A DNA stretch of 49,419 nt, from NCBI GenBank assembly GCA_001784175.1, contig MFPR01000030.1:124001-173419 (forward strand), in the 5' to 3' direction. Source of the DNA: Candidatus Lindowbacteria bacterium RIFCSPLOWO2_12_FULL_62_27. GTDB taxonomy: Bacteria > Lindowbacteria > 2-12-FULL-62-27. Position 1 is the stretch's first letter; the number at the start of each line of letters is the position of its first letter. The translations under genes and the position numbers were made by a program. Under the pieces are notes generated by a model. The model was not told the DNA's origin. It did no database searches and saw only the letters and a list, made by a program, of their open reading frames with translations. Shown piece after piece: positions 1 through 17,121 of the stretch.

Positions 1-692
1 AACGGCGTGCGGTCGTTCGCCGCCGCGTCCTCATTGACGGGATGGTTGTAGAAGTTCGTCCCGTCGTTCAGAGACCTGAACTCGTCCTTGATGTCCGTCG
101 CCGCCGGCGCGCCGTCGTGGCATTCATAGCAGAGATACTCCTCCTGGCGGATCGTGAGGTCGCTCGTGGGCTGGGTATTGGAGGTGTAAGGCCCCCCCGT
201 GAGATTGTCGGCGTCGACGATTCTCACGCCGTGCGGATCATGGCAATTGACGCATTCGCCGGTGTTGTTGCCCGAGGCCGGATAGACGACGTTGGCGCTC
301 GTCCAGTGCGAGGACAGTTCGAACTTGGCCTGGCCCGGCCAGCCCGGAAGATTGGCGTTGGTGTCGGTGTGGCAGACGAAACAGGTCGAATTGACCCACG
401 GAGACGCGGCGGAGGGGGCCGGCAGCATTTTCGGATAGCCGGCGCCGGCGTTGGGCGTGTCGGTCGAATCCAACGACGCATGCTGAATGTGGCAGTTGCC
501 GCAAAGTCCCGTGTCCCTGACGTCCGACGCGTAGCCTCCGATCCATCGAATCTGCGCGCCGGTGTCGGGATCGCCATGCGCGACGTTTTTGATGATGTTC
601 GCCGCCCAAATATCCCGTACGGTCAGAAAGCAAACCGCCAAAGAGATCAAGGCCGCCGCCGGGAGGGCGAATTTTTCCCACGACGAATTCAT
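1..692 (-). CDS. Secreted multiheme c-type cytochrome, 3' end outside the window (at least 4 hemes)
   Basis: Translated by hand; absent from the ORF track because it has no stop in the window. ATG at 692, 2 nt after the radical SAM stop, with GAGG upstream. Signal peptide MNSSWEKFALPAAALISLAVCFLTVRDIWA. Motifs CGNCH, CFVCH, CVNCHDPH, CYECH. Frame open to position 1. Confidence 0.9.
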   Translation of the reverse strand, partial: MNSSWEKFALPAAALISLAVCFLTVRDIWAANIIKNVAHGDPDTGAQIRWIGGYASDVRDTGLCGNCHIQHASLDSTDTPNAGAGYPKMLPAPSAASPWVNSTCFVCHTDTNANLPGWPGQAKFELSSHWTSANVVYPASGNNTGECVNCHDPHGVRIVDADNLTGGPYTSNTQPTSDLTIRQEEYLCYECHDGAPAATDIKDEFRSLNDGTNFYNHPVNEDAAANDRTP

Positions 693-694
693 CG

Positions 695-2155
695 TCAGAC
701 GGCCTCATGGACACTGTGCGCGGAAATGTGACGCGGAAGTTCCCCAAGCCGCAGGAGGTGCGATTTCAGGAATGAATTGTGCATCATGACCTTCATGGAA
801 CGCATCATGTACTCGCGTTTGAAATCGTTTTTCAACGCCCGGACCTCTGACAACTTGTCCATGTAAAAATCCCGGTAACAGCGCAGGACCGCCGTGAAAA
901 TTTCATCCCGGGACATGTTCTTCGGCCGGATGACCGGCTCGACCAGATTGTATTTGCTGAAATCCCATTCCTCGATATGGGGTTTGACCTGCGCGTAGAT
1001 GTCGCTGTAGGGCCAGGGCGTAAGAAGCAAAAAATGCGCGAAGTCCGGATTGAACCGTTTGGCCTGCTTGAGTGTGAAGGCGATGGACTGCGGGGTTTCG
1101 TCCGGCGTGCCGAGGACGAATGAGGTTTCGCTCACGATGTCGGCGGCGTTGATCAGCCGCAGGGCCTCCTTGGACTCTTCGACGGACAATTTCTTGTTGT
1201 AATCGTCGAGCCGGTCCTGTCCGGCCGCCTCCACGCCGACGTAGATGTGGATGATCCCGGCTTTGCGGTATTTCCAAAGGATGTCCGCGTCGCGAAGGAT
1301 GTCGACGACGGTCGTCTCCATGAGGAACATCACGTCTTTTTTCAGGCCGATCATCCGGTCGATGATTTCCTCCCATCGGCCGCGGTCGGTGGTGGGTCTT
1401 TCGTCGGGGATGAGAATGACGTTCACACCGTGCCTCTCGATCAACTCGCGCGCCAACTGCTCGAATTTGTCCGGTGAGATCGCCCGCCATGTCCGGTTCC
1501 AGAATTTTTGCTGGGAACAGAACGAACAGCCTTCCGAACAGCCGCGCGAGGTGCTGATGGAGCCGAGGGTGGAGTTCGGGATGACGTGATATTTGTAGAT
1601 GCTCCAATCGAGAAGACCGTAATCCGGCGAAAGCGTGTCCAGATCGCGGACGAATTCCCGGCGTCCGCCGGAAACGATCCGGCCGTCAACCCGGGCCCCC
1701 ACGCCGCGGGGCAGGCCGCCGTTCATTCCACCATCAAAAATCTGATTGAGCATGTCGCGAAACGGCAGTTCGCCCTCGCCGACGATGACATAATCGACGA
1801 AGGGATTTTCCGCGAGGATGTCCCGCCACATGAACGTCGCGTGGACGCCGCCGCATACGGTCACGACGCGCGGCGACATCTGTTTGACCCGGCGGAGCAT
1901 GTCGAGAGCGGCGGGAAAACTGGCGGTGTAGCCCCCGACGGCGATGAGGTCGGGATTGATTTCGGCGATCCTGCGGACCGCGCCGTCCAAATCCGCGCCT
2001 TCCGACATGGCGTCGTACAAAACGACGTCGAACTTGCTCCGGTCCAGCGCGCCGCCTAAAAACGTGAGGGCCAGCGGCATCCAGTTCCCGGCGCACTCGA
2101 GCACGCCGCAGTGGTAGGTGGGCGTCGCGAGCAGAATCCGCGGTTTACGAGGCAT
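695..2155 (-). CDS. Cobalamin-binding (class B) radical SAM enzyme, BchE-like/methyltransferase type
   Basis: CSEGCSFC (CxxxCxxC), N-terminal B12-binding motifs (PDLIAVGGYT...VCGGVHATF), YVGVEA, FVLGTPDET. Start moved to ATG 2155 (MPRKPRILL), overlapping the upstream stop. Confidence 0.9.
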   Translation of the reverse strand: MPRKPRILLATPTYHCGVLECAGNWMPLALTFLGGALDRSKFDVVLYDAMSEGADLDGAVRRIAEINPDLIAVGGYTASFPAALDMLRRVKQMSPRVVTVCGGVHATFMWRDILAENPFVDYVIVGEGELPFRDMLNQIFDGGMNGGLPRGVGARVDGRIVSGGRREFVRDLDTLSPDYGLLDWSIYKYHVIPNSTLGSISTSRGCSEGCSFCSQQKFWNRTWRAISPDKFEQLARELIERHGVNVILIPDERPTTDRGRWEEIIDRMIGLKKDVMFLMETTVVDILRDADILWKYRKAGIIHIYVGVEAAGQDRLDDYNKKLSVEESKEALRLINAADIVSETSFVLGTPDETPQSIAFTLKQAKRFNPDFAHFLLLTPWPYSDIYAQVKPHIEEWDFSKYNLVEPVIRPKNMSRDEIFTAVLRCYRDFYMDKLSEVRALKNDFKREYMMRSMKVMMHNSFLKSHLLRLGELPRHISAHSVHEAV

Positions 2156-2474
2156 GGCGTCTCCGCTTGCGCCACAGATGAACGGCAAACCAGACGGCGA
2201 TGACGCCGAAGATGGCATGTTTCCCCACGATCAACGCCATGTGCTCCCGCTCCGCCGTCTGGGTCGTGAAAATCCGCAGGACGCCCCCGACGCCGATCAG
2301 GACGAGCGTGGCCAGAAACGATTTGAACGTGCAGTCCGTGATTTGCTTTCGGAGTTCCGGGTTGTCTCCCAACTTTTTAATCAAAACGAAATGATAGACA
2401 ATGACGGCCACAAACAGCCCGGCGGAAAATTCGTGAAGGTAATGGACGGCGAGCGTATAAGCATCCATGGTCAT
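2145..2474 (-). CDS. Small integral membrane protein (3 TM, His-containing helices)
   Basis: Three hydrophobic segments with His residues (HYLHEF, YHF, GKH, VHL); overlaps both neighbours. Confidence 0.75.
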   Translation of the reverse strand: MTMDAYTLAVHYLHEFSAGLFVAVIVYHFVLIKKLGDNPELRKQITDCTFKSFLATLVLIGVGGVLRIFTTQTAEREHMALIVGKHAIFGVIAVWFAVHLWRKRRRHAS

Positions 2475-3103
2475 TCCCTCCGGTTGAAATGATTTTCCAT
2501 CGACGCCACGCTCGCGTCGATGATTCTCTTGCCCAGTTTCAACATCGTGTCGGCCCGGCCGACGCCGAAGACCGTCTCGTCGTCCCGTTCGGTCAGCGAA
2601 TGGGTCACGCTGACGAGGATGTCGCCGGTCCGGCCGTCCAGAAGCCGAATGGATATGCCCAGGGCCATCGGACTTTCGCGCCGTATCTCCGTCACGGCGC
2701 CGGCCACGACGAAATCCGCGCCGTATTTCTTCACGATGTCCTTGACCGTTTCAGGATCGATTTTGTGGAACCATCTGGCCCGACGTCCCTCCAGAACCTT
2801 GGCGGCGTCGCCCTGCGGAATCGCCTCGAAAATGCTCCCGGACGTGATCCGGTTGAACAGGATGTCATCCATGAAGGTGAAGTCGTCCTGCCGGCCCGTC
2901 AAATTCTGCAGGGGGAGAACGACGGTCTTGACGGACGTGACGATCATCCCGTTCAGTTTGGATTGCGCGACATAAACCGACGGGGGCATTTTGTTGCAGG
3001 CCATGAGGAGGACGCACAACCCGAGCAGACAACGGCCAACACGCAACTGGCAACGGCTTGGATTCCCGCGGGAAGGACGGAGGGGGCGGAATAACCCTGT
3101 CAT
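2471..3103 (-). CDS. Lipoprotein, CsgG/PelC/LpoB-like alpha/beta fold
   Basis: Lipobox LMAC; VVLPLQNLTG ... GADFVVAGAVTE ... ISIRLLDGRTGDIL pattern. Confidence 0.75.
   Translation of the reverse strand: MTGLFRPLRPSRGNPSRCQLRVGRCLLGLCVLLMACNKMPPSVYVAQSKLNGMIVTSVKTVVLPLQNLTGRQDDFTFMDDILFNRITSGSIFEAIPQGDAAKVLEGRRARWFHKIDPETVKDIVKKYGADFVVAGAVTEIRRESPMALGISIRLLDGRTGDILVSVTHSLTERDDETVFGVGRADTMLKLGKRIIDASVASMENHFNRRE
3059..3079. repeat. REP-like palindrome TGGATTCCCGCGGGAA(G/T)GACG, second copy at 22562-22582
   Basis: 20/21 identity between the two copies; core TTCCCGCGGGAA is a perfect palindrome. Confidence 0.6.
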
Positions 3104-3693
3104 GGCGTTTTGGGCCTCGCCTTTGAGCGGGCCGCCGCGGCGACGAATGGCCTCAGAATTTCCCGCACGGCGGTTTCAAGATTGGCCGCGCGGGTCCGCT
3201 CCGCCCCCGCGCTCAGCATGCGCGGGCGATCGGAGGCAGAAATGATTTTTTCGTTGTAAAACAGCATTTCCTCGCGCTCGACGTCGTAGATCGTCAGGCC
3301 GATGTAGACTTCGTTCCCCTCCCCCTCCTCGAATTTGCGCAGAACGGGAGCGATGACGATCCGATCGCCGAGCTTCCGGCCGGCCCTGCAGAGGCGGTCT
3401 TTATCGATGGTGCCGATCCATTCGACGTCCACTTCATCCAGCGCCCGTTCGACCGCGGACGGATTTTCCAGAACGAACAGACCGGATTGCCCCACCAGGG
3501 TAAACAGGATCTCATCCGTTTTGACGCCCGCCATGGGATCGGGGACAAAGTTCAGGACCGGCAAAATCATCGCCGAGGCCGGCCACGCCACGAATTTGAC
3601 GGACGGACTGACATACAGGTGGGGCTTGGGAGGCGCCGCGACGGTGCAGGATAGAATAATCGCGCAGGCCGGCAGAGCGAGCCGCCCGTTCAT
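3100..3693 (-). CDS. Lipoprotein, CsgG/PelC-like fold
   Basis: Lipobox ILSC; MILPVLNF ... IGLTIYDVEREEMLF pattern, paralogous to neighbours; ATGA overlaps. Confidence 0.7.
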   Translation of the reverse strand: MNGRLALPACAIILSCTVAAPPKPHLYVSPSVKFVAWPASAMILPVLNFVPDPMAGVKTDEILFTLVGQSGLFVLENPSAVERALDEVDVEWIGTIDKDRLCRAGRKLGDRIVIAPVLRKFEEGEGNEVYIGLTIYDVEREEMLFYNEKIISASDRPRMLSAGAERTRAANLETAVREILRPFVAAAARSKARPKTP

Positions 3694-4541
3694 GGCTTTT
3701 TCACCATCTCGATGATTTTCGCCTTCACTTTGTAATCCAAGATCATCGAGTGAAGTTTGTTTTCAATTTGGAAAATCGTCCGCACATCCCGCAATTTGGC
3801 GCCGTCGGCGCCCGCGGCGCCGTCCAGAAGAGAGCGGCTCTCCTTGATCCATCGGGCGTCGGGGTCATTCAGTCCCAGCGCTTCGCTCTCTTTCAGCATC
3901 CTCCGCACCTTCTCGACTTTTCTCCCCTTGATGGACTTCAAATGAGGCTCTATATTTTCGGCGAATTTTTCGATCAGCCGCTCGCATATTTCGACGGTCA
4001 ATTCCATCCGGGTTTTTTTCCGCCGGCCCGGGACATTGTACTGATTCGCGGACGCCGCCGCCGTGGATTCGTCGTAATACAGGATCCGGCCATCCCGGAC
4101 CCTGTAGATTCGGAGCCCGATGGTGATCTGCGGATAATCGTCCACCACCGCAACATCTTCAACGGACACCACGATGAGATAGCCGAGCTTGGCGGCCCGG
4201 GCGACGGTGAGAAGCGTTTCGAGGGCGGGCACATCGTTCCAGCGAAGATACCGCCGGTTGAGCTCGCGAAAAACGTCGTCCGCCGTCGAATAGGGTTCGA
4301 TCAGACCCTCCCGGATCAGCACATTTTTGATGATGTCGGTATACTTCCAGTTCTCCTGCGCCATCCGACCCGTTCGGTCGAGAAGCGGAGAAAATCCAAT
4401 CGTGTTTTCCTCGGAAATCAGATTCTGGATGTCGTCTTCGAGGTCCAGATAATGTCGGCCGGCTGAATCCTGCCGGCATCCGGCGAAAAGCAGGGCCAGC
4501 GCCAGAACGACCGCCTTATTCCCAGCGGACAATTTTATCAC
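3690..4541 (-). CDS. Lipoprotein, CsgG/PelC-like fold with C-terminal helical extension
   Basis: Lipobox FAGC; IGFSPLLDRTG ... ITIGLRIYRVRDGRILY pattern. Confidence 0.7.
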   Translation of the reverse strand: MIKLSAGNKAVVLALALLFAGCRQDSAGRHYLDLEDDIQNLISEENTIGFSPLLDRTGRMAQENWKYTDIIKNVLIREGLIEPYSTADDVFRELNRRYLRWNDVPALETLLTVARAAKLGYLIVVSVEDVAVVDDYPQITIGLRIYRVRDGRILYYDESTAAASANQYNVPGRRKKTRMELTVEICERLIEKFAENIEPHLKSIKGRKVEKVRRMLKESEALGLNDPDARWIKESRSLLDGAAGADGAKLRDVRTIFQIENKLHSMILDYKVKAKIIEMVKKP

Positions 4542-5991
4542 CCCGCAGTTCCACGAGCTTCGGCTCGATCGTCCATTCCTCCGTGCCGCCGACCGCGGAC
4601 GTGACGTTCGTTTTTCTTCGGAAGACGATTTTGAAGAGTTTCCTGCCGTCCGGGGCGCTGACCACCCGGACGCCGGACATGGGTTTGACGCTCACGGCCT
4701 CCGGCTCCATTTTTGTCACGACGCCATTTTTTAATGGATCCGCCCGGGCGCCCTTGAAAAGGGCGATCAGTTTGACAAGGTCCGGAAAGTCGTCTGTGAA
4801 GATGTCCCGGATTCTCTCAACGTCGCCTTCCGCCAGCGCCGCCACGGCGTTGTCCATGACCATCAGGGCGTCCCGGTTCTCTTTTTTGGCGGCCAGCCGC
4901 TCTTCAAAGGGCGTTTCAGTCAGATCGCGCTTGGAAATCCTCTCCCGCGTCGACATCCATCCGTCCGTATCAGGCTCAACCGGGATCGACACCAGGGAAT
5001 CCCGAACCCTTCCCATGCGCGAGGCAATCCAGACGGCGCCCTGATGAAATTCAACGGCCGACACGGTCGGCGAGATGTCGGTCGATTCAATTTCAAAAAA
5101 CGCCTCCCGCCTGTTGTCATAGCCCACCAGTCCCCGCTCCTCCGTGCCGACCAGGGTAAACGACGCCAGCGGGAAAATTTTCGTCACCGCATAGTCGTAT
5201 TCGCCGCCCAGCTTGATTCGGACGGCTTCCCCGGTCTCCGGCTGAAACTCCCAGATTCTTCCCGGGGCGCCGCACCAGAGCCTGCCGCCGACGAATTTGA
5301 TTCTTCGGATGTCCTCGTCACGGAACCCCTTTTCATAGGAGGCCCGGGTAAAGCGCTCCACGTCCGGCTCGAATTTCGTGAGTCCAAGATCCGTGGCCAG
5401 CCAGACAACCCCTCCCTCGATTTCGATGTCGTTCAGGCCGTTTGACCCCAGTCCATCCTCGGCCGTGTAGAGAGTCCAGGTGTGAAATCCCCTGTCGTAA
5501 CGGATCAGGCCCCCCGGCGTGTCGACTCCGAACGGATTGTCATGGGCAAGGGCCAGAAAGAGGTACCGGTCCGTCCATTCGATGTCCAGCAGGGGATAAC
5601 CCTTCCAGTTCGCCTGCCCGGGCCGCTGGGAGAAATTCTCCGTGAACAGGTCAAAAACGCACATTCCCGTGTCCGTCGCCAGATACAGGTAACGGTCGAT
5701 GATTTTCATGTCGTTGATTTTGTATTGGCCGAACCCCTCGGGGAGATCATAGTGTGTCCATCGGTCCGATGGGACTTCGTAGCGGTCCATTTTGCCGTTG
5801 GCGTATCCGATCCATAACGACTCTTTGCCGGATGCCATCGCCGTGATGACTTCCTGGACCCGTCTCGATGACAGATTGTACGTTCGCCATTCCGCGCCAT
5901 ACCCGGCGCCCGCGAGCGCGGCCACGGCCGCCACGCAAAGCACGACGGCCGCCAAAGACGCCGGCCGGCCTCCGGAAAACCGCGCGGTCAT
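4516..5991 (-). CDS. Secreted beta-propeller protein (regulator-propeller-like repeats)
   Basis: Signal peptide; repeated LW(I/L)(G/A)T..G blades, e.g. WTLYTAEDGLGSNGLNDI..VWLATDLGL. Confidence 0.75.
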   Translation of the reverse strand: MTARFSGGRPASLAAVVLCVAAVAALAGAGYGAEWRTYNLSSRRVQEVITAMASGKESLWIGYANGKMDRYEVPSDRWTHYDLPEGFGQYKINDMKIIDRYLYLATDTGMCVFDLFTENFSQRPGQANWKGYPLLDIEWTDRYLFLALAHDNPFGVDTPGGLIRYDRGFHTWTLYTAEDGLGSNGLNDIEIEGGVVWLATDLGLTKFEPDVERFTRASYEKGFRDEDIRRIKFVGGRLWCGAPGRIWEFQPETGEAVRIKLGGEYDYAVTKIFPLASFTLVGTEERGLVGYDNRREAFFEIESTDISPTVSAVEFHQGAVWIASRMGRVRDSLVSIPVEPDTDGWMSTRERISKRDLTETPFEERLAAKKENRDALMVMDNAVAALAEGDVERIRDIFTDDFPDLVKLIALFKGARADPLKNGVVTKMEPEAVSVKPMSGVRVVSAPDGRKLFKIVFRRKTNVTSAVGGTEEWTIEPKLVELRGDKIVRWE

Positions 5992-6581
5992 TTCCCGCCT
6001 CCGTCGCCGCCGTATCCGCGTCTGGCAGCCCGGCCTCGTTTGAACATGGCGCGGACGGTCTTCGCCGTGAGCTTCTGCACGAGCCGTTTCATCGACGTCG
6101 TTTCGCCGATGCCGAACGTCGGCAGGTCGCTTGTGCCGACCACGCCGATGTCGGCGGTCCAGATGGTGACGCCGGATTCGATGTCGATGATTTTCGAGAC
6201 TACATTGATTTCGGGCTTGCCCTCGTCGTACACTTGAATCGTACCGTACACGATGATGTCGGCCCCGAATTGCTCCTGAATCTTCTTCATCTCCTCGCCG
6301 GTAAGAAACCGGCCGGCCTCGATCCTCTTCTCCCGCAAGAAAGCCTCAATCTGGCTCTCCGGCACGACGTCGAAAATCCGGCTGTTTAGAATCTCGACGA
6401 CCAGGGACTCCTTGATGATGACCGGCGCCTTGGCGTTGCCGGCCAGGTTGTAGAACGGCAGTACGACCGCTTTCTTCGCTGCCGTCATATCCGCCAGCGG
6501 ATGCACGTAGACGTGATTGGTCGTCCCACAGCCGCACAGGAGGGCCGCCAGACACACCCAGGGCAGAATTCCAGATCGCAC
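5988..6581 (-). CDS. Lipoprotein, CsgG/PelC/GNA1162-like fold
   Basis: Lipobox LCGC; KKAVVLPFYNLAG ... GADIIVYGTI ... KIIDIESGVTIW. Start set to GTG 6581 downstream of GGAGG (track start 6611). Confidence 0.8.
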   Translation of the reverse strand: MRSGILPWVCLAALLCGCGTTNHVYVHPLADMTAAKKAVVLPFYNLAGNAKAPVIIKESLVVEILNSRIFDVVPESQIEAFLREKRIEAGRFLTGEEMKKIQEQFGADIIVYGTIQVYDEGKPEINVVSKIIDIESGVTIWTADIGVVGTSDLPTFGIGETTSMKRLVQKLTAKTVRAMFKRGRAARRGYGGDGGGK

Positions 6582-6601
6582 GGCGCCCCATCCTCCCTTG
6601 A

Positions 6602-8308
6602 TCAGAACCATAGATTGTACGCGCTGCTCAGTTGGTTCGAATCCCGGACGCCCGGCAGGTGGTTCAATCCGTAGCTGAGCGTGAGGCGCGATTTCTCGAC
6701 ATCCCGGGACCGGACTTCGATTTTCAGCGTGCCCGCGTTATTTTTCGCGATGTCGATCAAGTTCAGCGTGGAGGCGAGCGTCAGCTTGTGGGTGAGGGCA
6801 AACGAGAGCGAATGGACGACGCCGACCCTCACCGAGGTCGTGCTGGATTTGCCGGCGGCGGCGCGCGCCCTCGTATGGTCGAGGTAGGAGGTCACGGAGA
6901 GGAATCGGCCAAGGTTCAGTCGGACCTCGGCGGACTGGTTGAAGGATTTCCGGCCGGCGTCTTTCGAGTGGTTCAGATAGCCGCTGATCGTCAGAGGCGC
7001 CTTGCTGACGGAGAACGTCCCCCCCATCAGGTAGTCGCGGGTCAGATTCGCGCCCGACCCGCTCCGCTCCTTCCGGATTCGGTTGCCCAGATCGAACGCG
7101 GTCCGCTTGCTGAAGACATAACGCAGTTTATTCTCCATCAGGTTGCTGCGTCCGGAACTGCGCTCCTCGAAATTCCGCGACACGGATTCGACGTACTTGA
7201 CGGAAAGCGTCGCAATGTCCCGGTAGAGGCCGGCCGTCAAGAGATGGCTGAATCCGCCGGACTCCAGCGTCTTTATTTTCCCGTTTGCGCCGTTGTATCG
7301 CGCGTCCCGGTTCGCGTCGAGCCGGACACTGACGGACGGCAGGGGGTCCAGGGCGAGGCTGATGCCGGCGGCGTTGTTTTTCTGCGCCGTGGGCAATCCC
7401 ATGCCGATGCGGACCTGATTGAAGCTTCCGGACCACCGGGCGTTCTCGACGACGGTTCCCTGGAGAGAAACGGCATTCTCGATCTGGCGGGATTTGCCGC
7501 CGGCGTGGGCGTCCGATAGGGCGTAGCCCATCGTGTTCGATAACGACAGTTTCGGCAGGAGCGCGGCGTTGAAGAGGAGATTGACGAAATGCCTCGTGGA
7601 CCGCGAGGTGGTCCGCGAGGATTGTGTGGCGTTCGACAGATTGTATTTGATGTTCAGGCTCGAGTTGGGCATCAACAGAAATCCGCGGTTGTAGCCGTAA
7701 TCGAACATCAATCCTCGCGTGGTTTCATGGGTCGCGCGGCCGGCGGCAAGATTGTCGAAGATCCGGTTCTGGAAGGTATACCGGAGCGTAACGGCTTTGA
7801 TCTGGTAAGCCGAATTCATCAGGAGTTCCTTCGATTCCGAGGATTTCCGGCTGAGATTGAAATTCTGCGCCATGCGGGTGCTGAAATCCAGGGAGGGCAG
7901 GTATCGCGGCATGGCCAGTCCCAGGGTCGATGTGAAATTCCGGTCCAGGCGCTGGTTGCCTTCGTCCGTGGCCGACTGAAACTGCCGGATGCCCAGGGCC
8001 CATTTGTACTTTGATTTGGCCTCCGTCGCGTCCAGAAAAGGAGAGATGCGGTAGGTGGACGCGGTTTTCTGATTTGCGCCGCTGGCCACGAATTGCGCCG
8101 CGGCGCCGATGTTGATCTTCTTGTTCAGCCTCCGGTCGGCGCTGAGATTGTAAGTCCGCAAAAATCCCTCCGACATCCGCTCTTCGGCCCACGACTTGTC
8201 GTATCTCCAGTTGACGCTGCCGGTCAGCGGACGCGCGGATGCGCCGAGAATCAAGGTTCCCAGAAGGAACAGGACGGACAGAGACACGCCCAAAAGAGCC
8301 GAATTCAT
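6602..8308 (-). CDS. Outer-membrane beta-barrel protein
   Basis: Signal peptide, long run of amphipathic alternating beta-strands, C-terminal beta-signal AYNLWF. Confidence 0.8.
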   Translation of the reverse strand: MNSALLGVSLSVLFLLGTLILGASARPLTGSVNWRYDKSWAEERMSEGFLRTYNLSADRRLNKKINIGAAAQFVASGANQKTASTYRISPFLDATEAKSKYKWALGIRQFQSATDEGNQRLDRNFTSTLGLAMPRYLPSLDFSTRMAQNFNLSRKSSESKELLMNSAYQIKAVTLRYTFQNRIFDNLAAGRATHETTRGLMFDYGYNRGFLLMPNSSLNIKYNLSNATQSSRTTSRSTRHFVNLLFNAALLPKLSLSNTMGYALSDAHAGGKSRQIENAVSLQGTVVENARWSGSFNQVRIGMGLPTAQKNNAAGISLALDPLPSVSVRLDANRDARYNGANGKIKTLESGGFSHLLTAGLYRDIATLSVKYVESVSRNFEERSSGRSNLMENKLRYVFSKRTAFDLGNRIRKERSGSGANLTRDYLMGGTFSVSKAPLTISGYLNHSKDAGRKSFNQSAEVRLNLGRFLSVTSYLDHTRARAAAGKSSTTSVRVGVVHSLSFALTHKLTLASTLNLIDIAKNNAGTLKIEVRSRDVEKSRLTLSYGLNHLPGVRDSNQLSSAYNLWF

Positions 8309-8760
8309 TTGAGCGCGCCCGTATCCGGCAATTGGATTCGCCGAAGGTAAAAGGCGATGGGCAGCTTGTTGTCATTGCCGAATCGGGGATATCTCTGAAA
8401 AATCCATTGCCGGTATTTCAGATCTGCGCCGACAAAACAGGACAGATAGGCCGCCGGATTGTCCGGCTTCTCCGAACGCGCTTGAACCGCCCGCGTTTTG
8501 TCCGAAAAGGAGAAACTCGGCAGAAATTCGGTGATGAGCAGGGTGAGATCTGTGCCGGGGATTTTTACTTTTTTACCGAAGGGCAGGGCATACACATTTT
8601 GAATCGACGGGTCCTGCTTGCTGACAACGGCAATTTCATAGGAGGCCTTTTTGTAAAGGGGCGGAGTTGCCCCGGGCTTGTCGCAACCCCAGGCGACAAA
8701 CAGCGCGAAGCACCCGACGATTCGTATGGACGTATCCCCAAACCACACACGTTCCTCCAT
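8305..8760 (-). CDS. Lipoprotein of unknown function (DUF2155-like; shares a motif with the ResB insert)
   Basis: RBS AAGGAG, lipobox AWGC; EFLPSF...SEKPDNPAA...QWIFQRYPRF. Confidence 0.7.
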   Translation of the reverse strand: MEERVWFGDTSIRIVGCFALFVAWGCDKPGATPPLYKKASYEIAVVSKQDPSIQNVYALPFGKKVKIPGTDLTLLITEFLPSFSFSDKTRAVQARSEKPDNPAAYLSCFVGADLKYRQWIFQRYPRFGNDNKLPIAFYLRRIQLPDTGALK

Positions 8761-8825: not shown

Positions 8826-8848
8826 CCGGGAGGGCATACCCTCCCCGG
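8826..8848 (-). other. Stem-loop downstream of omcS-like gene (no U-tract; stabiliser or partial terminator)
   Basis: CCGGGAGGG-cata-CCCTCCCCGG inverted repeat in the 186-bp intergenic gap. Confidence 0.55.
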
Positions 8849-8946
8849 GCTCCCTGTTTACAAACACGAACCGCCTTCAGGACGGGTTAATCTCCGTCGT
8901 CTACACTGACGACCTCCGCGAATCCGCCAGCCGATCCCGCGCAAAC

Positions 8947-9987
8947 CTACTTGTTGTGACACACCTCGCACGCCTCCGGCGCGCCGGCCAGTGTGCCCGT
9001 ATCGGGTCTGAAACGAAGGCTGGCGACGTTGAAGCTTCCATGAGCGCGATGGCAGGTCAGACAGAAAACGGCCTTGTTCCCCGAGCTGGTCGTCAGAAGG
9101 GGATAGGTGTCCGACCCGCCGTAGTTCGTGTAGTTGGTCTGAACGGCCGCCGTCAGCTGAAAGTCCACGGGGTGGTGCGTATTGGCGCCGGCGGAATTGT
9201 CAACCAGTCCGTCGGCGTCATAATTGCCCGTCACCGCCCCTTGGATGTTCTGGGTCGATGGATCAAAGGTGTTGCTCGGCCCGAACTTCTCGTGGCAGTC
9301 CTGACAGTACAGCGTGAAATCGGCCGTGTACTGGCCGGTGTCTTCCCAAACGCTGGTGTCCGTATAGCCGTTGGACTGCGCGAGGACGGTGCATCCAGAA
9401 ATCCCGGCGTTGACGCTGTTTGGATCGGGCAGGAGATTTCGGTAATTCGTGTTTCCGTGCTGGTTGTGGCAAGTGGCGCAGGTCATGTAGTTCGTGCCGT
9501 TGTCCCAGTTGCCGCCGCCTGAACCCGGGGGACTGGGCTGGGCGGCCGCGGCCACATGCAGATTATGCCCGCGCGTGTCTATCCAGTCGTTGCCTCCGCT
9601 GACGCGGTCATAGACGCCGACGCCCGCGCCGTAATAGCCGTAGCCTTCAAATCCGAATCCTCCGGCGGCCGGCGTGTCTCCGCCCGTCGTTTTGTCCGCA
9701 ACGCATGGCGCGCCGCTCGACGCGTAGTTCGGCCCGTCGGCGGAATGGCAGTTCAGGCAGAGGGTGTTGGTGTTCGTGGCTTTGAGCAGATTCGTAAATC
9801 CGGCGCCCCCATTGTAGGTCGTGACCCCGCCGCTGTCGCTGGCATGCATCACATGACAGTCGGAGCAGATGAGCGGATCGCTGTGGTAGTTGGCCGACGC
9901 CCGGCCTCCTTCGTCCTCGAAGGACACGGCGGCGACGAAGCCCGCGACAACAATCGCCACCAAGGCGAATTTCAAACATCTCCTCAT
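8947..9987 (-). CDS. omcS: Hexaheme OmcS-like extracellular (nanowire) cytochrome c
   Basis: Six CxxCH (CSDCH, CLNCH, CATCH, CQDCH, CLTCH, CEVCH) in OmcS-like order and context: mature N-terminus NYHS, CHVMH, AGGFG, RGHN, CHNQHG..YRNL, HHPV, CLTCHRAHGS..LRF, terminal CxxCHxK. Start ATG 9987 with AAGGAG RBS and signal peptide. Confidence 0.8.
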   Translation of the reverse strand: MRRCLKFALVAIVVAGFVAAVSFEDEGGRASANYHSDPLICSDCHVMHASDSGGVTTYNGGAGFTNLLKATNTNTLCLNCHSADGPNYASSGAPCVADKTTGGDTPAAGGFGFEGYGYYGAGVGVYDRVSGGNDWIDTRGHNLHVAAAAQPSPPGSGGGNWDNGTNYMTCATCHNQHGNTNYRNLLPDPNSVNAGISGCTVLAQSNGYTDTSVWEDTGQYTADFTLYCQDCHEKFGPSNTFDPSTQNIQGAVTGNYDADGLVDNSAGANTHHPVDFQLTAAVQTNYTNYGGSDTYPLLTTSSGNKAVFCLTCHRAHGSFNVASLRFRPDTGTLAGAPEACEVCHNK

Positions 9988-10051: not shown

Positions 10052-10933
10052 TTACTTGATCCGGTAAACGGTGACGGCTTTGAGAACATTGGATGACACG
10101 TACATGATGTTGTTCACAAACGCGGCCGAGCGGAATCCCGGCAGAAAAAGCTCCGTCTCGAATTCGCCCGTCGGATTGAACACCTCAAGCGTCCTTTTGC
10201 CGACGTCGGAAACCCATACGTTTCCGTCGGCGGAGACATACACGCGATTGATGAGCGAAAACGTCCCCGGTTTGCCGCCCGCCCGGCCGAATCTGTGAAT
10301 CAGGACGCCTTGATCGGCGTCATAGATCATCACGGAATAACCGCCCTGATCCGCGACGTAGACCTTGCCGCCCTGATAGACGCAGTCGCTGATGCGCCGG
10401 AATCCCTCCTTCATAAAGACGACGTCGCCGTTCAAGGTGACGCCGTAGGCGGCCTGCGAATGGTAGTCGGCAAAGAAGACCGCTTTGCGATCGGGGCTGT
10501 AATGTCCGCCCGTCACCGCCGTCCCGGACCCATTTCGAAGATGTTTCTTTTCAATGAAATTCCCGCGGTAATCATAGAGGGACAATTCCCCGGCCCGGGA
10601 CACGAGGCCGATATCGCCGTTCGGCGCCGCAAAAAGTACGGCCGGATCGGCCACATCGACTTTGAAGTAATACTTGAGGCGGCCGGACGGGCTGAGAATG
10701 TAAACCATCGAGGTGGAACTCTCATAGACGAGCAATTCCCACACGCTCGTGTCCAGATAGACGAGCGAGGGATCCTCGTAATCGGCGCCGAGTGAAAAAT
10801 TGTGAATGACGCTGACGACCGCCGGCGCAAACGCGGAGGCCGGCGACGGCGACAGGGCAAGCGCCAGGAACGCGATCATGACAGCGCGGACGGGGATCAG
10901 GCGATCAGCCCTTGTGGCATTGCTGACAGACAT
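10052..10933 (-). CDS. Secreted NHL-repeat / 6-bladed beta-propeller protein
   Basis: Signal peptide; VYVADQGGYSVMIYD...FGRAGGKPGTFS..VYVSADGNVWVSD..LEVF NHL blades. Confidence 0.85.
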   Translation of the reverse strand: MSVSNATRADRLIPVRAVMIAFLALALSPSPASAFAPAVVSVIHNFSLGADYEDPSLVYLDTSVWELLVYESSTSMVYILSPSGRLKYYFKVDVADPAVLFAAPNGDIGLVSRAGELSLYDYRGNFIEKKHLRNGSGTAVTGGHYSPDRKAVFFADYHSQAAYGVTLNGDVVFMKEGFRRISDCVYQGGKVYVADQGGYSVMIYDADQGVLIHRFGRAGGKPGTFSLINRVYVSADGNVWVSDVGKRTLEVFNPTGEFETELFLPGFRSAAFVNNIMYVSSNVLKAVTVYRIK

Positions 10934-13900
10934 CCGGCTGCCCCCTTTTCAAAATGCCTTTGAGGTCGGACCCGTGAGGAGAATGGCAGGACACGCATTC
11001 GACCGCCCGACCATCCGGGGTCTTGATGTCTACCGGGTGGACGTGCTCTCCCTCGAATTTGTGGCAGGACTCGCATACCTTCGTGACCGTCGGGGCTTTC
11101 AGGAGCGGTCTGGCCTCGGCGTAATGGGGCGTGTGACATTTCACGCAGTCGCCCTTTTTCGCCGGCGGATGCCCGATTTTGGCCGCCGCAATGTCGCGGC
11201 GCTGGGCGGTATGACAGGTAAAACAGAGTTCGGGCGGGCGGGCGCGAAGGTTATGCTCGATGTCCGACCCATGCGGCGCGTGGCATTCGACGCACCCATT
11301 CTTCTCGATCGCTCCGTGCGCGGCTTTGCCCGCGTTCGCCGCCGGAGATTTTTGCTCGTGGCAGACGAAGCAGGCATTCTTGTTGATCGTGACGGCCTTG
11401 CCCTTGACGACCGGCTCCTCATGACAGTTGGTGCACAGGCCTTTTTTGACCGGATAATGGGCCGTGGGTTTCAGGAGTTTCTTCTCGGCGCCGCCGTGAG
11501 GGGTGTGGCACATGGAACAGCGCGCGCCGGTGACATCGTTGTTGACATGCGCCAGTTTGAATTTGGCTTCGGTCGCATCGTGGCACGTCAGGCACAGTTC
11601 GGCCACGGCGGCGTTGAGAAGCGGCTTCTGGCCGGAGCCGTGAACCGCATGACAGGTCAGACACGCGCCCTCGGCCGCCGGCGGATGGGGCACCGGGGAC
11701 TGCGAAACGATTTTCGCGATGCCGGCGTGACAGCTCAAGCATAATTTCCCGTCGTCCGCCGACAGCTTCAATCGGTTCTTCGTGTCGCCGGCGTGAGGTT
11801 CGTGACAGGACAGGCATTCGCCCTTCTTCACCGGCGGATGTTCGGAGGCGAGGGAGGACGCGAGTCGAATTTTCTCGTGACAAGACAGGCAGAGTTTTGT
11901 CCTGGGGGCCGCCAGATACGGCTGGTCATTCGAAGCATGCGGGTTGTGGCATTTCGCGCAGTCTTCCTTGACGGGCGCATGCACGAATTTTTTCTTGAGC
12001 CAGTCGGCTTGCTGGTCGTGGCAGGTGGCGCAGACCTCCGTCCGCCGCTCCGGCAGGCCGAGCGCCGATGAATCGGTCACCTCGCCGTGGCAATTTTCGC
12101 AGCCACGCTCCTCGAAGGGCGGATGACGATGTTTCTTCAGAAGGCCCTTGTCCCCGGAGTAATGCGGCGTATGGCAGTAGGCGCAGCGCGTATTTTTGGT
12201 GAGCATATTCTTGTGTTTGTCCTGAAGATCGCCGGCGTCGAGCTTGTGGCAATCGGCGCAGAGTTCTCCCTCGGGTTTGACCAGCATCCATTTGCGGCCC
12301 GATGCGTGGGTGGCGTGGCAGGTCACGCACATCTGCTTTTTCACAGGGAAATGGGTGACGCCTGTGTCGGGGAAATTGAACTTATCCTGATGGCAATCCT
12401 GGCACGGCACGGAAGACTTCAACGTCAGCAATTTCGCTTTTTCGGAGCTGTGCGGCGCGTGGCATCGAGAGCATTGGCCCTCCTTAAACGGCGGATGGCC
12501 ATCCGGGTCTTTCAACTGTTCCTTCACTTTGGCGTGACAGGTCGCACAGACCTCCACAGGCTTCGTCCGGAACATCTTGTCTTCGGAACTTTGATGCGGG
12601 TCGTGGCAGCGCGCGCACTGGCCCTCGGACACCGGGCGATGCACGACGGAAAGCTGAAAGGGCCCCTGCTTGTGGCAGGTGAAACAGAGCGCCGGAGTCG
12701 GCCTGGCGAGGAGGGACGCCTGGTTCGAAGTATGGGATGCATGGCATTTGATACACTCGCCGTTCTTGAAGGGCTGATGGGGCGTCTTGTTGGGATCCGG
12801 TTTCTTGTCGTCATGGCAGTTCTGGCACAGCGCCGGCGGCGGCTGGACGAGCAGCTTTGGATTGTTGGAGGTGTGGGACTGATGACAGTTCATGCAGTTG
12901 TCCTCCATCGGCGGATGGACGACGCGGCCGGTAAAGTTTTCCTTTTTGTGGCATCGCAGACACAGTTCGGACGCGGGCGCGCGCAGAAGATGGTCCGTCG
13001 AACTGCCGTGCCCGAGGTGACAGAGGATGCAGTCGCGATTCTGATAAGGCCGGTGGGTCGATTTCTCTCCGGAAGCATATTTGTGGCAGTCCACGCAGAC
13101 TCCGCCGCTCTCTTTAGCCAGAAACCAGCTCTGATTCGATCCATGAGGCGCGTGGCATTTCACGCACTGGCCCCGCTTCGCCGGATCGTGCGCGCTTTTG
13201 CCTTTCGCCGTGTTCTCTTTGATTTTGGCGTGGCAGGAAAGGCAAATCTCCCCGCCATCCGCCGGCACGGAAAATTTCGCCGCGCCTTCCGACAGTTTGT
13301 GGCAGGCCGCGCATTTGCCCTCCTTGACCGGAGCGTGGAGATTGACGAGGAGGTTTTCATTTTTGGAGGCGTGCGGGCTGTGGCAGGTCAGACAATTCCC
13401 GCTTTCGATCTTCTGCCCGCTATGTTTTCCGACAAGGTCGTCGTTGAAGGTGTGACATTTGAGACACAGATCGGGCATGGGTTTGTTCAGCATGCCGGCC
13501 GACTGCTCGCCATGGGGATTGTGGCAGACCACGCACTGGCCGTCCGAAAGATGGGGATGAACGTGCGGCAGCTCCATGTCCTTGCTTGTGTTGTCATGGC
13601 AGTCGACGCATTTCTTGCCGGGATCGACGAGACGCTTGTCGTCCGAGACGTGCGCATCGTGGCAGGCAAGGCATTTGCCGAGGGCCACGGGACTGTGGAC
13701 GTTTGGACCGCGGGGAATATTGTTGTGGCAGGTAGAACAGAGTTCGGCGGGCGGGAATTTGAGGGAAAGGCGGGGCAGAAGCCCGTGCTGTTTATGGCAG
13801 GCCAGGCAATCATTTTTCAGGACTGGGTCATGCTTGAAAGCGGACTCCTTAAAACGTGTTTTCGTTTTTCTGTGGCATTCAAAACAAAGCGCCCCGCCGG

Positions 13901-14084
13901 ATTCACCTCTATTGACGTTCGTGGCGGTCGGCGTGCAGGACACAAGAAGCACCGAACACACGAGGAAGCAGGCAAGGGCCATTCGCCGCAAATGCGATGG
14001 ATGAAGGCATAGAGTTCCACCCTCCGTCTTTTTCCCGTCAGAGAACTCATGCCGATCGGATCGGCGGAAGAAACAGAAACGCAT
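10905..14084 (-). CDS. Giant multiheme c-type cytochrome lipoprotein (42 CxxCH, doubled-CXXCH repeats)
   Basis: 42 CxxCH motifs counted by hand in HxP..G.CxxCHxPH.S...LL....LCxxCH units; lipobox LVSC; GGAGG RBS 10 nt before ATG 14084. Confidence 0.95.
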   Translation of the reverse strand: MRFCFFRRSDRHEFSDGKKTEGGTLCLHPSHLRRMALACFLVCSVLLVSCTPTATNVNRGESGGALCFECHRKTKTRFKESAFKHDPVLKNDCLACHKQHGLLPRLSLKFPPAELCSTCHNNIPRGPNVHSPVALGKCLACHDAHVSDDKRLVDPGKKCVDCHDNTSKDMELPHVHPHLSDGQCVVCHNPHGEQSAGMLNKPMPDLCLKCHTFNDDLVGKHSGQKIESGNCLTCHSPHASKNENLLVNLHAPVKEGKCAACHKLSEGAAKFSVPADGGEICLSCHAKIKENTAKGKSAHDPAKRGQCVKCHAPHGSNQSWFLAKESGGVCVDCHKYASGEKSTHRPYQNRDCILCHLGHGSSTDHLLRAPASELCLRCHKKENFTGRVVHPPMEDNCMNCHQSHTSNNPKLLVQPPPALCQNCHDDKKPDPNKTPHQPFKNGECIKCHASHTSNQASLLARPTPALCFTCHKQGPFQLSVVHRPVSEGQCARCHDPHQSSEDKMFRTKPVEVCATCHAKVKEQLKDPDGHPPFKEGQCSRCHAPHSSEKAKLLTLKSSVPCQDCHQDKFNFPDTGVTHFPVKKQMCVTCHATHASGRKWMLVKPEGELCADCHKLDAGDLQDKHKNMLTKNTRCAYCHTPHYSGDKGLLKKHRHPPFEERGCENCHGEVTDSSALGLPERRTEVCATCHDQQADWLKKKFVHAPVKEDCAKCHNPHASNDQPYLAAPRTKLCLSCHEKIRLASSLASEHPPVKKGECLSCHEPHAGDTKNRLKLSADDGKLCLSCHAGIAKIVSQSPVPHPPAAEGACLTCHAVHGSGQKPLLNAAVAELCLTCHDATEAKFKLAHVNNDVTGARCSMCHTPHGGAEKKLLKPTAHYPVKKGLCTNCHEEPVVKGKAVTINKNACFVCHEQKSPAANAGKAAHGAIEKNGCVECHAPHGSDIEHNLRARPPELCFTCHTAQRRDIAAAKIGHPPAKKGDCVKCHTPHYAEARPLLKAPTVTKVCESCHKFEGEHVHPVDIKTPDGRAVECVSCHSPHGSDLKGILKRGQPDVCQQCHKG

Positions 14085-14355: not shown

Positions 14356-14994
14356 TTATTTGGTTTCGGGTTCAGGCGCCGACTCTGGTTTGTATTCCGG
14401 GGCGGCACCGGGTGCGGCCGGCAGTTCGCCTTCGTGTCCCGGCTGATAGTGCGCGATCTTCTTCCACGCCGCTTGGGCCTCAAATCCGACTGCCGTATCC
14501 CACGTTGGCGCCTTTTCGTTGTGGCATCCGGCACAGACCGCCGCCGTCGGATGGACCAGACCGTTCGCCACCGCCGCCTGAGAATCCTTCATAACGCTCA
14601 TCTTCGCGTAATCCGCGCCGGCCCCGTGACAGTGTTCGCACTGGACGCCGTCCTCCATCCTGAACTTCTCTCCCAGCAGCGACGTGTCCGCTTTGAAGGC
14701 GGTCACATGACAGACCAGGCACTCGTCCGATTTCTGGGGGTCGCCCTCCAGTCCGGCCTTCTTCGCAATCTCTTTGGCCGTGTCCGTGCCGAGCGTCTCG
14801 TAAGCCCGCGCGTGGCCGCTCTCTTTCCAGATCTTATACTGCGCCCCTTTGGCATCGGACTTGTGACACATTCCGCATTTGTCCGCGCCGACAAACCCGT
14901 GTTCGACGTTGGCCGGCGCCGTCTCCTCCGCGTTCGCCTTCAAGGACCCCATGAACCCAACCATCACCAGCGATACAAACAGAAATCTTTTCAT
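14356..14994 (-). CDS. Periplasmic tetraheme cytochrome c, c554-like family
   Basis: Signal peptide; FVGADKCGMCH..QYKIWKESGHA, CLVCH, GVQCEHCHGAG, CAGCH; RBS AAGGAG. Confidence 0.85.
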   Translation of the reverse strand: MKRFLFVSLVMVGFMGSLKANAEETAPANVEHGFVGADKCGMCHKSDAKGAQYKIWKESGHARAYETLGTDTAKEIAKKAGLEGDPQKSDECLVCHVTAFKADTSLLGEKFRMEDGVQCEHCHGAGADYAKMSVMKDSQAAVANGLVHPTAAVCAGCHNEKAPTWDTAVGFEAQAAWKKIAHYQPGHEGELPAAPGAAPEYKPESAPEPETK

Positions 14995-15095: not shown

Positions 15096-15869
15096 TTACG
15101 CGTAGCTGTGCAGCCCGGACAGCAGATAATTCACGCCGAAATAGGTGAAGAGCACGCAGGCGAATCCGCCGATGGCCAGCCACGCGAACCGGGCGCCTTC
15201 CCATTTTCGGACGCGGCGCAGGTGGATGGCGAGGGCGTAGATGATCCACGTGATGAGCGACCAGGTTTCCTTCGGATCCCACGACCAGTACGTGCCCCAG
15301 GCTTCGTTCGCCCACACGGCGCCGAGGACAATACCGACTGTCAGGAGAATGAATCCGAGGATGATGGCGCGAAAGGTGAAGGCATCGAGGGCTTTTTCAA
15401 GGCCGTTTTTTTGGATGAGAAACACGATGGATGAAAGCGTGGCCAGGCCGAGCGCCGCGTAGGCCATGAGCGTGGTGGAGACATGAAAGAGCAGCCAATT
15501 CGATTGGAGCGCCGGAACGAGCGGGCGGATGGATTTGTCGAGGAGCGCGGCGATGCCGAGAAAGAGGAGCGCCAGGATCGCGGTCCAGAATCCGAGGCCG
15601 GGGATGGACCACTTGATGGAAAAAATAAAATGAAAGAGCAGGATCGACCACGTGAGGCTCACCAGGGATTCGAACTGGTTGGACAGCGGAGCGAACCCGC
15701 CGACGTTCCACCGCGTTGCCAGAAAAACGGTCAGGAGAATCCAGCTCACTCCCAGCGAGAGGACAGCCAAAAAATCAAAAACAGGCCGGGCGACCAGGCG
15801 GCGAATGGCGCCGAAAAGCAGAGTCGCGAGGAGACACCCAAAGGCCGCGTTCAGAAGGAGGGGGCTCAC
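15096..15869 (-). CDS. ccsA: Cytochrome c synthase, system II WWD-domain subunit (CcsA/ResC)
   Basis: LVPALQSNWLLFHV, GAVWANEAWGTYWSWDPKETW, terminal GLHSYA. Start set to GTG 15869, overlapping the resB stop. Confidence 0.95.
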   Translation of the reverse strand: MSPLLLNAAFGCLLATLLFGAIRRLVARPVFDFLAVLSLGVSWILLTVFLATRWNVGGFAPLSNQFESLVSLTWSILLFHFIFSIKWSIPGLGFWTAILALLFLGIAALLDKSIRPLVPALQSNWLLFHVSTTLMAYAALGLATLSSIVFLIQKNGLEKALDAFTFRAIILGFILLTVGIVLGAVWANEAWGTYWSWDPKETWSLITWIIYALAIHLRRVRKWEGARFAWLAIGGFACVLFTYFGVNYLLSGLHSYA

Positions 15870-16960: not shown

Positions 16961-16971
16961 GAGCCAACCTA

Positions 16972-16989
16972 CTGCAAAAGCTGTTCCGG
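16972..16989 (-). promoter_or_regulatory. Sigma54 (-24/-12) promoter for resB-ccsA-c554
   Basis: Minus strand CCGGAACAGCTTTTGCAG = GG-N10-GC; the GC is 13 nt before the resB ATG. Confidence 0.6.
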
Positions 16990-17121
16990 ACAATCAGGAG
17001 AAGGGCGGGAAATGCGTAATCTCTCGGAATGCAGGTGGATGGCGTTTCGGGCCGATGGCGGGGATCGTCCTGGGATGTAATGAATCAGGGCAAACAATAT
17101 TCCGGTTTAAAACAATTCAGC

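Follow-up and report, generated by a model that had tools for sequence, protein, structure and literature searches.

The DNA analysed here, which we call the window, is a stretch of 49,419 nucleotides from Candidatus Lindowbacteria bacterium RIFCSPLOWO2_12_FULL_62_27 (contig MFPR01000030.1, positions 124,001 to 173,419). The gene in question, at 8947..9987 on the minus strand, encodes a compact hexaheme c-type cytochrome of the OmcS family, with a precursor of 346 residues and a mature form of about 314. An earlier note, made from the letters of this DNA, had read the product as a shortened OmcS-like cytochrome that polymerises into conductive filaments. The open reading frame (ORF) was found intact where that note had placed it, with 346 codons, an ATG at 9987 and a stop codon at 8947-8949. 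A Shine-Dalgarno-like aaaggag stands 8 nucleotides 5' of this ATG, and we preferred it for that reason over an alternative in-frame ATG further upstream, at 10020. Residues 1-32 (9892..9987, minus strand) were read from the sequence as a predicted Sec signal peptide, with a basic n-region, a hydrophobic core and an A-S-A site directly before N-Y-H; cleavage after residue 32 would leave a mature protein of 314 residues. In most relatives, an AxA-type site lies 1-3 residues ahead of the first distal histidine, as it does in OmcS (AFA then FH). The protein has no lipobox, and the Sec signal was the sole targeting signal that could be read. Six CxxCH motifs start at residues 41, 77, 170, 228, 309 and 340. 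Besides the six proximal histidines of these motifs, the 14 histidines of the protein comprise six candidate distal ligands, His35 (YH), His48 (CHVMH), His141 (GHN), His177 (NQH), His272 (HHP) and His316 (RAH), as well as His144 and His271. All six motifs and all six distal histidines named in the earlier note were recovered, and exactly these six distal histidines turned out to be the conserved ones.

A family profile was needed to reach OmcS, because a single-sequence phmmer search against all PDB chains missed it and returned nonaheme cytochromes alone (E 0.03-0.04). Pfam and NCBIfam gave generic multiheme domains for the window protein, and nothing more specific. We gathered 53 relatives from a large protein collection and aligned 46 of them with the window protein (alignment A1, 47 rows); these proteins are referred to below as the compact family. 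Against PDB, the A1 profile had OmcS as its sole strong match (6ef8/6nef, E 2e-23), these two being the only OmcS-family entries that it reached, and the next chains followed at E 5e-6 or weaker. The comparison set came from 151 genomes of Desulfuromonadia, the class that holds a Malonomonas metagenome-assembled genome (MAG), of which 88 matched at E<=1e-5. From 29 of their loci we took 19 six-heme OmcS-type proteins, one of which has a mature form of 407 residues that agrees with the OmcS residues of the PDB alignment. Comparing the compact family with these 19 proteins, hhalign gave 99.95% (E 6.2e-38) over 274 columns. Direct alignment of the window protein with OmcS showed 25.3% identity over 285 columns, and BLASTP against OmcT gave E 2.7e-13 in a 12-protein database. 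On this sequence evidence, the window protein is a true but distant homologue of OmcS.

The A1 profile also matched OmcE (7tfs, E 8.4e-6) and 9yuq, a 218-residue 'putative multiheme cytochrome c' of 16 chains (E 4.7e-6), and it aligned the compact hemes 3-6 to OmcE hemes 1-4. The OmcE match was only about 10-fold better than those of generic octaheme nitrite reductases (E 1e-4), and published statements hold OmcS and OmcE to be without sequence similarity; we take the resemblance between the compact family and OmcE as a lead and not as a finding. OmcE (PDB 7tfs) has four hemes, in contrast to the six of the window protein, whose similarity to it is far weaker than that to OmcS. Judged by the four hemes and the fold that define the OmcE family, the window protein falls outside it.

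The CxxCH motifs of the window protein align one to one with Cys9, 47, 140, 239, 328 and 400 of mature OmcS. The distal His35, 48, 141, 177, 272 and 316 map to OmcS His2, 16, 110, 147, 257 and 335, and the earlier note was therefore right that they stand in OmcS order. It was also right that the histidine of CHVMH is kept, as His48 (codon at 9844..9846, minus strand) is, by alignment mapping, the counterpart of OmcS His16. In a joint alignment of 66 sequences (47 compact and 19 Desulfuromonadia OmcS-type proteins), all Cys and His columns of the CxxCH motifs and five of the distal-His columns were 100% conserved, and the His48 column was conserved at 98% (65/66, the exception being P0051). Across 70 named genome loci, the His48 position was occupied by histidine in 103 of 103 six-heme relatives. 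As far as these alignments can tell, the conservation of the six distal histidines is far beyond chance.

The inter-subunit pair of OmcS is His16 and the heme of His332, and in the A1-profile alignment His332 is the CxxCH histidine of heme 5. The corresponding motif of the window protein, Cys309-His313 (9049..9063, minus strand), aligns with Cys328-His332 of mature OmcS, and its heme would be expected to take His48 of the neighbouring subunit. According to published accounts, heme 5 of OmcS is ligated by a histidine from the adjacent monomer (PMC7096707, PMC9473688), and OmcE likewise uses a histidine of the adjacent subunit (PMC9473688). With twelve conserved histidines for six hemes, one heme would go without a ligand if His48 were unused. 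His48 stands three residues after the proximal histidine of heme 1 and, on geometric grounds, should be unable to reach heme 5 of its own subunit in an OmcS-like linear chain. A mean-field coevolution scan, underpowered at 272 sequences (effective number, Meff, 251), ranked the pair 43-317, that is, the heme-1 motif and the residue after His316, 32nd of 41,041.

Heme spacing explains the difference in size. Hemes 1-2 lie 36 residues apart in the window protein and 38 in OmcS, and hemes 2-3 are spaced by 93 residues in both; the distances are 58 versus 99 residues for hemes 3-4, 81 versus 89 for hemes 4-5 and 31 versus 72 for hemes 5-6. The loop deletions invoked in the earlier note were thus confirmed, and they amount essentially to two of 41 residues each, between hemes 3-4 and hemes 5-6, with smaller deletions besides and about 25 extra residues after heme 4 relative to OmcS. 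The window protein and the compact clade (about 310 mature residues) spend 52 residues per heme, versus 68 in OmcS. Taken together, the window protein resembles OmcS (GSU2504; PDB 6ef8, 6nef) in the order of its six CxxCH motifs, in its six aligned distal histidines, including the His16 counterpart, and in a first distal histidine 2-4 residues from the predicted mature N-terminus. The surroundings are also alike, with an NHL propeller gene directly upstream and barrel and lipoprotein genes downstream. It differs from OmcS in its mature length (about 314 versus 407 residues), in sharing only 25% identity, in being encoded by a single-copy gene instead of an omcS/omcT/oscC trio, and in being known from sequence alone.

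In Geobacter, omcS is accompanied by the osc cluster (Shen et al. 2025 Cell Chem Biol, as cited in PMC13194489, PMC12977616 and PMC13748539). Within the operon, OscH is reported to act in the folding of OmcS, OscE, F and G in its secretion and OscD in its morphology (PMC13194489, after Shen et al. 2025), and PMC12977616 cites the same study for a role in OmcS folding, secretion and morphology. The latter paper also ties an eight-gene block, GSU2500-GSU2493, to the maturation/secretion of OmcS nanowires. The genes GSU2505-2501 are listed in PMC10599522, and oscC, oscI and oscJ correspond to GSU2501, GSU2495 and GSU2494, respectively (PMC13194489). Going by gene order, the letters OscD-OscH would fall on GSU2500-2496. 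Our reference was the region around the OmcS gene of a Geobacter-type genome (locus L202 of genome G036), whose order is an NHL protein, OmcS, OmcT, a spermidine-synthase-like membrane protein, a third hexaheme, a 498-residue propeller and a 729-residue barrel-like protein, then a 199-residue GNA1162-like lipoprotein, a 392-residue protein, a 578-residue peptidyl-prolyl isomerase (PPIase) protein and 26-heme and 10-heme cytochromes. This order agrees with the published Geobacter gene list.

The OmcS-like gene of the window belongs to a long array on the minus strand, to which all genes of this and the next paragraph belong. Upstream to downstream, it is preceded by genes for ResB/CcsA, a tetraheme cytochrome, a 42-heme cytochrome and a propeller, and followed by those for a 151-residue lipoprotein, a 568-residue barrel, a 207-residue lipoprotein, a 491-residue protein, three small lipoproteins, a radical SAM enzyme and a 9-heme cytochrome. 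System II cytochrome c maturation is represented by ResB (15866-16993; ResB E 1.1e-36; start uncertain, with overlapping ORF calls) and CcsA (15096-16181; Pfam Cytochrom_C_asm E 1.6e-49). The tetraheme cytochrome (14356..14994; 212 residues, 4 CxxCH) matched Pfam Cytochrome_C554 (E 2.8e-21). Next comes a giant, OscI-like multiheme cytochrome (10905..14084; 1059 residues) with 42 CxxCH motifs and 22 stretches of Pfam Paired_CXXCH_1 ('doubled CXXCH' repeats). In BLASTP, it matched two proteins of the Geobacter locus, the 26-heme one at 32% identity (E 1.6e-94) and the 10-heme one (E 1.8e-36), with E-values that are inflated because the sequences are repetitive. It is much larger than its OscI-like counterpart in Geobacter (660 residues, 26 hemes). 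The secreted NHL-type beta-propeller (10052..10933; 293 residues) had weak Pfam NHL, SGL and DUF5128 matches; hhalign gave 98.2% (E 5.8e-14) with a family that holds the Geobacter 327-residue and 498-residue proteins, and NHL-type Pfam matches were present in both the window propeller and the Geobacter propeller.

Between the stop codon of the OmcS-like gene and the next gene lies a gap of 186 nucleotides, with a weak terminator-like hairpin at 8885-8871 and, by eye, a GC-rich stem-loop at about 8826-8850; a terminator scan found 2 sites versus a mean of 1.8 in shuffled sequence, hence no excess. The predicted 151-residue lipoprotein that follows (8305..8760) has a lipobox-like A-W-G-C N-terminus and no Pfam or NCBIfam match. 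The 568-residue outer-membrane beta-barrel (6602..8308), a candidate OscE-like export channel, has a signal peptide and a C-terminal aromatic residue (...NLWF). Its Atlas structure matched outer-membrane proteins of 683-689 residues with template modelling (TM) scores of 0.76-0.78; these matches are commonest in Thermodesulfobacteriota and bear TIGR03016-like automatic names. BLASTP gave a weak match to the 729-residue Geobacter barrel (E 5e-7 over 131 residues, again in the 12-protein database). Four OscF/G-type (GNA1162/CsgG/LpoB-like) lipoprotein genes occupy 2471-6611, interleaved with the gene for the 491-residue secreted protein. The 207-residue lipoprotein (5988..6611) matched Pfam GNA1162-like and CsgG and gave 99.7% (E 6.7e-26) in hhalign with the reference family, which holds the Geobacter 199-residue and 392-residue proteins; the GNA1162-like match is common to the 207-residue and 199-residue proteins. 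The other three have lipobox-like N-termini, with hhalign values of 93.0% (E 3.3e-7) for the 283-residue protein (3690-4541), 96.9% (E 1.5e-10) for the 197-residue protein (3100-3693) and 99.1% (E 6.5e-19) for the 210-residue protein (2471-3103). The 491-residue protein (4516..5991) has a signal peptide, and a sub-threshold PorZ propeller match, and it matched none of the Osc families tested. Between the lipoprotein genes and the 9-heme cytochrome lies the gene for the B12-binding radical SAM enzyme (695..2218; Pfam B12-binding E 2e-24, Radical_SAM E 3.8e-19); only 1 of the 78 related loci had a relative, and the enzyme's membership in the module is uncertain. Finally, the window holds the N-terminal 230 residues of the multiheme cytochrome (3..692), which continues beyond the window as a 549-residue open frame with 9 CxxCH motifs in the genome.

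By sequence similarity, several of these neighbours are homologous to osc genes, and the neighbourhood is osc-like. The window holds relatives of OscI, of OscF/G (four), of the propeller and probably of the OscE barrel. The propeller family includes both the Geobacter 327-residue protein, at the GSU2505 position, and the 498-residue protein, at the OscD position. Unlike the Geobacter cluster, the window has neither an OscH-type PPIase nor a spermidine-synthase-like membrane protein among its ORFs; it has four single-domain lipoproteins, whereas Geobacter has one single-domain and one double-domain protein; and it has three extras, the 151-residue lipoprotein, the 491-residue secreted protein and the radical SAM enzyme.

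Elsewhere in the window, a BatA-BatD-type operon (two VWA proteins, BatD and a TPR protein; 17029-22541, plus strand) stands directly beside the cytochrome maturation genes. The contig end, at 28000-49419, has a GC content of 0.51-0.57 versus a genome mean of 0.613 and may be a mobile or defence island. It contains an AbiEi/DUF6088 gene, a PD-(D/E)XK nuclease, an AAA ATPase, a SLOG-domain protein and a 404-residue ORF that combines an FHIPEP (FlhA) segment with an FlhB C-terminal segment. Nine consecutive ORFs at 34141-43814 had no significant Pfam family, one of them having a sub-threshold match.

Relatives of the window protein were sought by scanning one genome per species, which gave at least 345 encoding stretches, and 78 loci were kept. 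Their record titles name 19 phyla, the most frequent being Eiseniibacteriota (11), Acidobacteriota (10) and Planctomycetota (10), with 13 loci unclassified; a few labels, Nonomuraea and Saccharimonadales among them, look like binning errors. Counted in this way, the compact clade is large and extends over at least 19 named phyla. The title of the Shen et al. study presents the OmcS machinery as widespread and ancient. Among the 70 loci with a six-heme protein of 280-460 residues, 28 hold two to four tandem copies. A profile search of 1.84 billion cluster representatives (50% identity) gave 5045 matches at E<=0.001, 2121 at E<=1e-10 and 368 at E<=1e-30. Where names are given to relatives or Atlas clusters, they are generic ('cytochrome c3 family', 'doubled CXXCH'), so that metagenome surveys of extracellular electron transfer would miss the compact proteins. 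OmcS-like proteins have been described outside Geobacter before. Published reports mention six-heme OmcS-like genes among periplasmic cytochrome and beta-barrel genes in marine Acidobacteriota MAGs (bioRxiv 10.1101/2020.10.01.322446), an OmcS homologue of Desulfurivibrio alkaliphilus induced >100-fold on iron oxide (PMC12545173) and a 28%-identical homologue in a Coriobacteriales MAG (PMC7399161); homologues outside Geobacter also figure in a survey tree (PMC10954620). Compared with the OmcS-like hexahemes reported outside Desulfuromonadia, that of the window comes from a very sparsely sampled lineage.

Neighbour families in the 78 loci were built from the greedy longest non-overlapping ORFs of at least 130 residues, with heme-rich ORFs excluded and the flanks of many loci truncated. 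Among these ORFs, the compact gene has a neighbour of the propeller family in 45/78 loci and one of the lipoprotein family in 31/78; the Geobacter barrel, the PPIase protein and the 151-residue protein have relatives in 10/78 each. The window barrel, used as phmmer query, had no match in the 78 loci. One apparent neighbour family, in 36 loci, proved to be the OmcS-like gene's own antisense shadow ORF and was set aside.

Longer proteins are also found among the relatives. Those of 675-711 residues (12-14 CxxCH) were considered as tandem OmcS-OmcS fusions and rejected; their C-terminal half is a different multiheme domain, and they consequently provide no Rosetta-stone support for a head-to-tail contact. 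These proteins are encoded at four loci of Poribacteria and Gemmatimonadota MAGs (L005, L016, L017, L036) and join a compact module to this other C-terminal domain, which has 6-8 hemes. Relatives of 752-4180 residues appear among the profile matches.

A tree of 48 rows (IQ-TREE quick, LG+G4) was computed from the 19 Desulfuromonadia proteins and 29 compact rows, namely the window protein, its nine closest relatives and every second of the rest. It separated Desulfuromonadia from compact rows with 100% support in the Shimodaira-Hasegawa-like approximate likelihood ratio test (SH-aLRT), and it placed OmcS, OmcT and the OscC type together in a 12-row clade. As all three fall across this split, the window protein is co-orthologous to OmcS, OmcT and OscC. 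The subclade of the window protein (with P0003-P0011) received 100% support, and an orthologue 78% identical to the window protein exists.

As to the host, a protein search with RpoB found three close relatives at 87, 86 and 79% identity and then dropped to 55%, to Spirochaetota MAGs, which puts the host in a sparsely sampled lineage. An RpoB pattern scan of genome contigs gave 42-58% identity to many phyla among the matches listed. Three other genera of the host family are represented in the species collection, which beyond them has nothing closer than the same domain. The host genome has 16 multiheme cytochrome ORFs and, at 94% completeness, the window gene as its only OmcS-family gene. The GC content of the cluster, 0.592, lies within one standard deviation of that of the genome (0.613, standard deviation 0.033). 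Near-identical DNA occurs in groundwater and soil metagenome runs, most of which may be the source of the assembly itself. In a groundwater run that is labelled metatranscriptomic and yet flagged 'probably DNA', one contig of 217 bases matches 9089-9305, inside the gene, with a single mismatch; it is not evidence of expression.

The explanation that we favour, with modest confidence, is that the window protein is a Sec-exported, soluble hexaheme cytochrome of the OmcS superfamily that forms exported, conductive OmcS-like filaments. Filament formation itself, as judged from ligands and gene neighbourhood, seems somewhat better than an even call; the export route, the polymerisation, the conductivity and the physiological role are all inferred. 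Polymerisation is suggested because exactly twelve conserved histidines serve six hemes, because His48 should not reach its own heme 5, because the gene's companions are homologues of a machinery reportedly devoted to OmcS filaments and because the genome has no other family member that could be the cargo of that machinery. The osc-like neighbourhood, absent from the earlier note, is a stronger support for a filament role than His48. In the proposed sequence of events, hemes would be attached first, with the ResB/CcsA pair encoded just upstream, and the protein would then cross the outer membrane through an osc-like apparatus made of the 568-residue barrel, the four OscF/G-type lipoproteins and the NHL propeller. 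Outside the cell, the subunits would polymerise head to tail in the manner of OmcS. His48, close to the free N-terminus of the mature protein, would provide heme 5 of the next subunit with its sixth ligand and so give a continuous chain of bis-His hemes. The 42-heme, 9-heme and 4-heme cytochromes of the cluster would probably supply the electrons, and the bacterium, an inhabitant of groundwater or soil, would use the filament for extracellular electron transfer.

Several observations weigh against this explanation. The AlphaFold2 model, computed without hemes, was of low confidence (mean predicted local distance difference test score, pLDDT, 54.8; predicted TM score 0.58), and residues 26-67, with His35, His48 and the heme-1 region, had pLDDT <50. 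In a Foldseek search, OmcE and OmcS ranked first without reaching significance (E 0.06 and 0.07). Within the limits of this model the predicted subunit fold is OmcS-like, at low confidence, and the earlier note's expectation of such a fold was not overturned. As to the export machinery, hhalign of the 568-residue barrel with the Geobacter barrel family at the OscE position reached only 50% (E 1.6e-4), and no match to the OscH family or to rotamase Pfam was found among the window ORFs, the rest of the genome not having been searched for this PPIase. The compact OmcS-like gene was found in 0/3 of the other genera of the host family (81-91% completeness). Lastly, His48 is a less telling residue than it seems. 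All 19 Desulfuromonadia OmcS-type proteins keep the His16-type histidine, including OmcT and the OscC-type paralogues, and CxxCHxxH is a generic multiheme motif, seen at 19/42 hemes of the neighbouring giant cytochrome. Because the OmcT and OscC types share this histidine and the motif is generic, a His16-type histidine by itself is, from sequence comparison, not diagnostic of filament formers.

The best of the alternatives is that the window protein is a non-polymerising OmcS-family cytochrome, acting as a monomer or small oligomer in a conduit of the porin-cytochrome type, or as an OscC-like cap, primer or anchor. According to PMC12977616, OmcS is the only one of the Geobacter paralogues known to form wires, which leaves OmcT and the OscC type without known wires, and the GSU2501 type always accompanies the eight-gene block. 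OscC (GSU2501) and OmcT (GSU2503) are hexaheme proteins with the same ligand pattern as the window protein, and the oscC gene stands immediately upstream of the eight-gene secretion block (PMC12977616), the very position that the window gene has with respect to the genes for its barrel and its lipoproteins. The loss of 41 residues between hemes 5 and 6 falls close to the interface-forming end of OmcS and may shrink the interface; like the oscC-type gene position, it also counts against the filament explanation. Moreover, the cluster pairs a barrel with large multiheme cytochromes of periplasmic type, as porin-cytochrome conduits do. Yet in the tree a split with 100% support divides the group of OscC, OmcT and OmcS from every compact protein; the window protein is thus not an orthologue of OscC specifically, and it is as co-orthologous to OmcS as to OscC. 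As the sole OmcS-family member of its genome, it would have no other subunit to cap or assist. The count of twelve histidines and the place of His48 beside heme 1 fit cross-ligation of the OmcS type, and the lack of a lipobox is unlike typical surface-anchored conduit cytochromes. All in all, we regard a non-polymerising role as rather unlikely.

A periplasmic electron carrier that stays in the cell and shuttles between the inner membrane and the 42-heme cytochrome appears improbable. It would agree with a Sec signal as the only export signal, and OscC is listed as periplasmic in a table of PMC13194489. However, the OmcS-like fold and the high protein-to-heme ratio (52 residues per heme) are unlike those of small periplasmic carriers, and the gene's tight linkage, in one phylum after another, with genes for OscF/G-type lipoproteins and an outer-membrane barrel argues against confinement to the periplasm. 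That the gene is a silent or decaying horizontal acquisition without present function, as its absence from the three other genera of the host family and the lack of clear RNA evidence might suggest, is very improbable given an intact ORF behind a good ribosome-binding site, a complete set of 18 heme-binding residues and six distal histidines, a cluster of genome-like GC content and the 78%-identical orthologue.

In the literature searched, whose coverage did not extend to Shen et al. 2025 and Wang et al. 2019, we found no description of a compact OmcS or of a solved filament of one. OmcS-like genes in Acidobacteriota and Desulfurivibrio are already known, and the window protein is arguably a new size variant of OmcS, which extends known biology and overturns none of it. 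Going further, we would suggest, quite tentatively, that the compact clade may be the common and possibly ancestral form of the OmcS nanowire. Under that proposal, His-cross-linked filaments exported by an Osc-like apparatus would be general among uncultured diderms of soil and groundwater, in 19 or more phyla. Geobacter OmcS would be a loop-expanded and recently triplicated form, and the host would owe its main route of extracellular electron transfer to the acquisition of the whole module. The window protein, at 52 residues per heme, would then be a near-minimal OmcS scaffold, useful, if this is true, for structure and engineering work. A subunit without the two 41-residue loops would reveal what in OmcS is required for its assembly and for conduction, and a single-copy gene with a trimmed osc-like cluster would be a simpler system in which to study filament export. 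If the compact proteins do polymerise, OmcS-type nanowires would be far more widespread than the Geobacter-centred literature shows.

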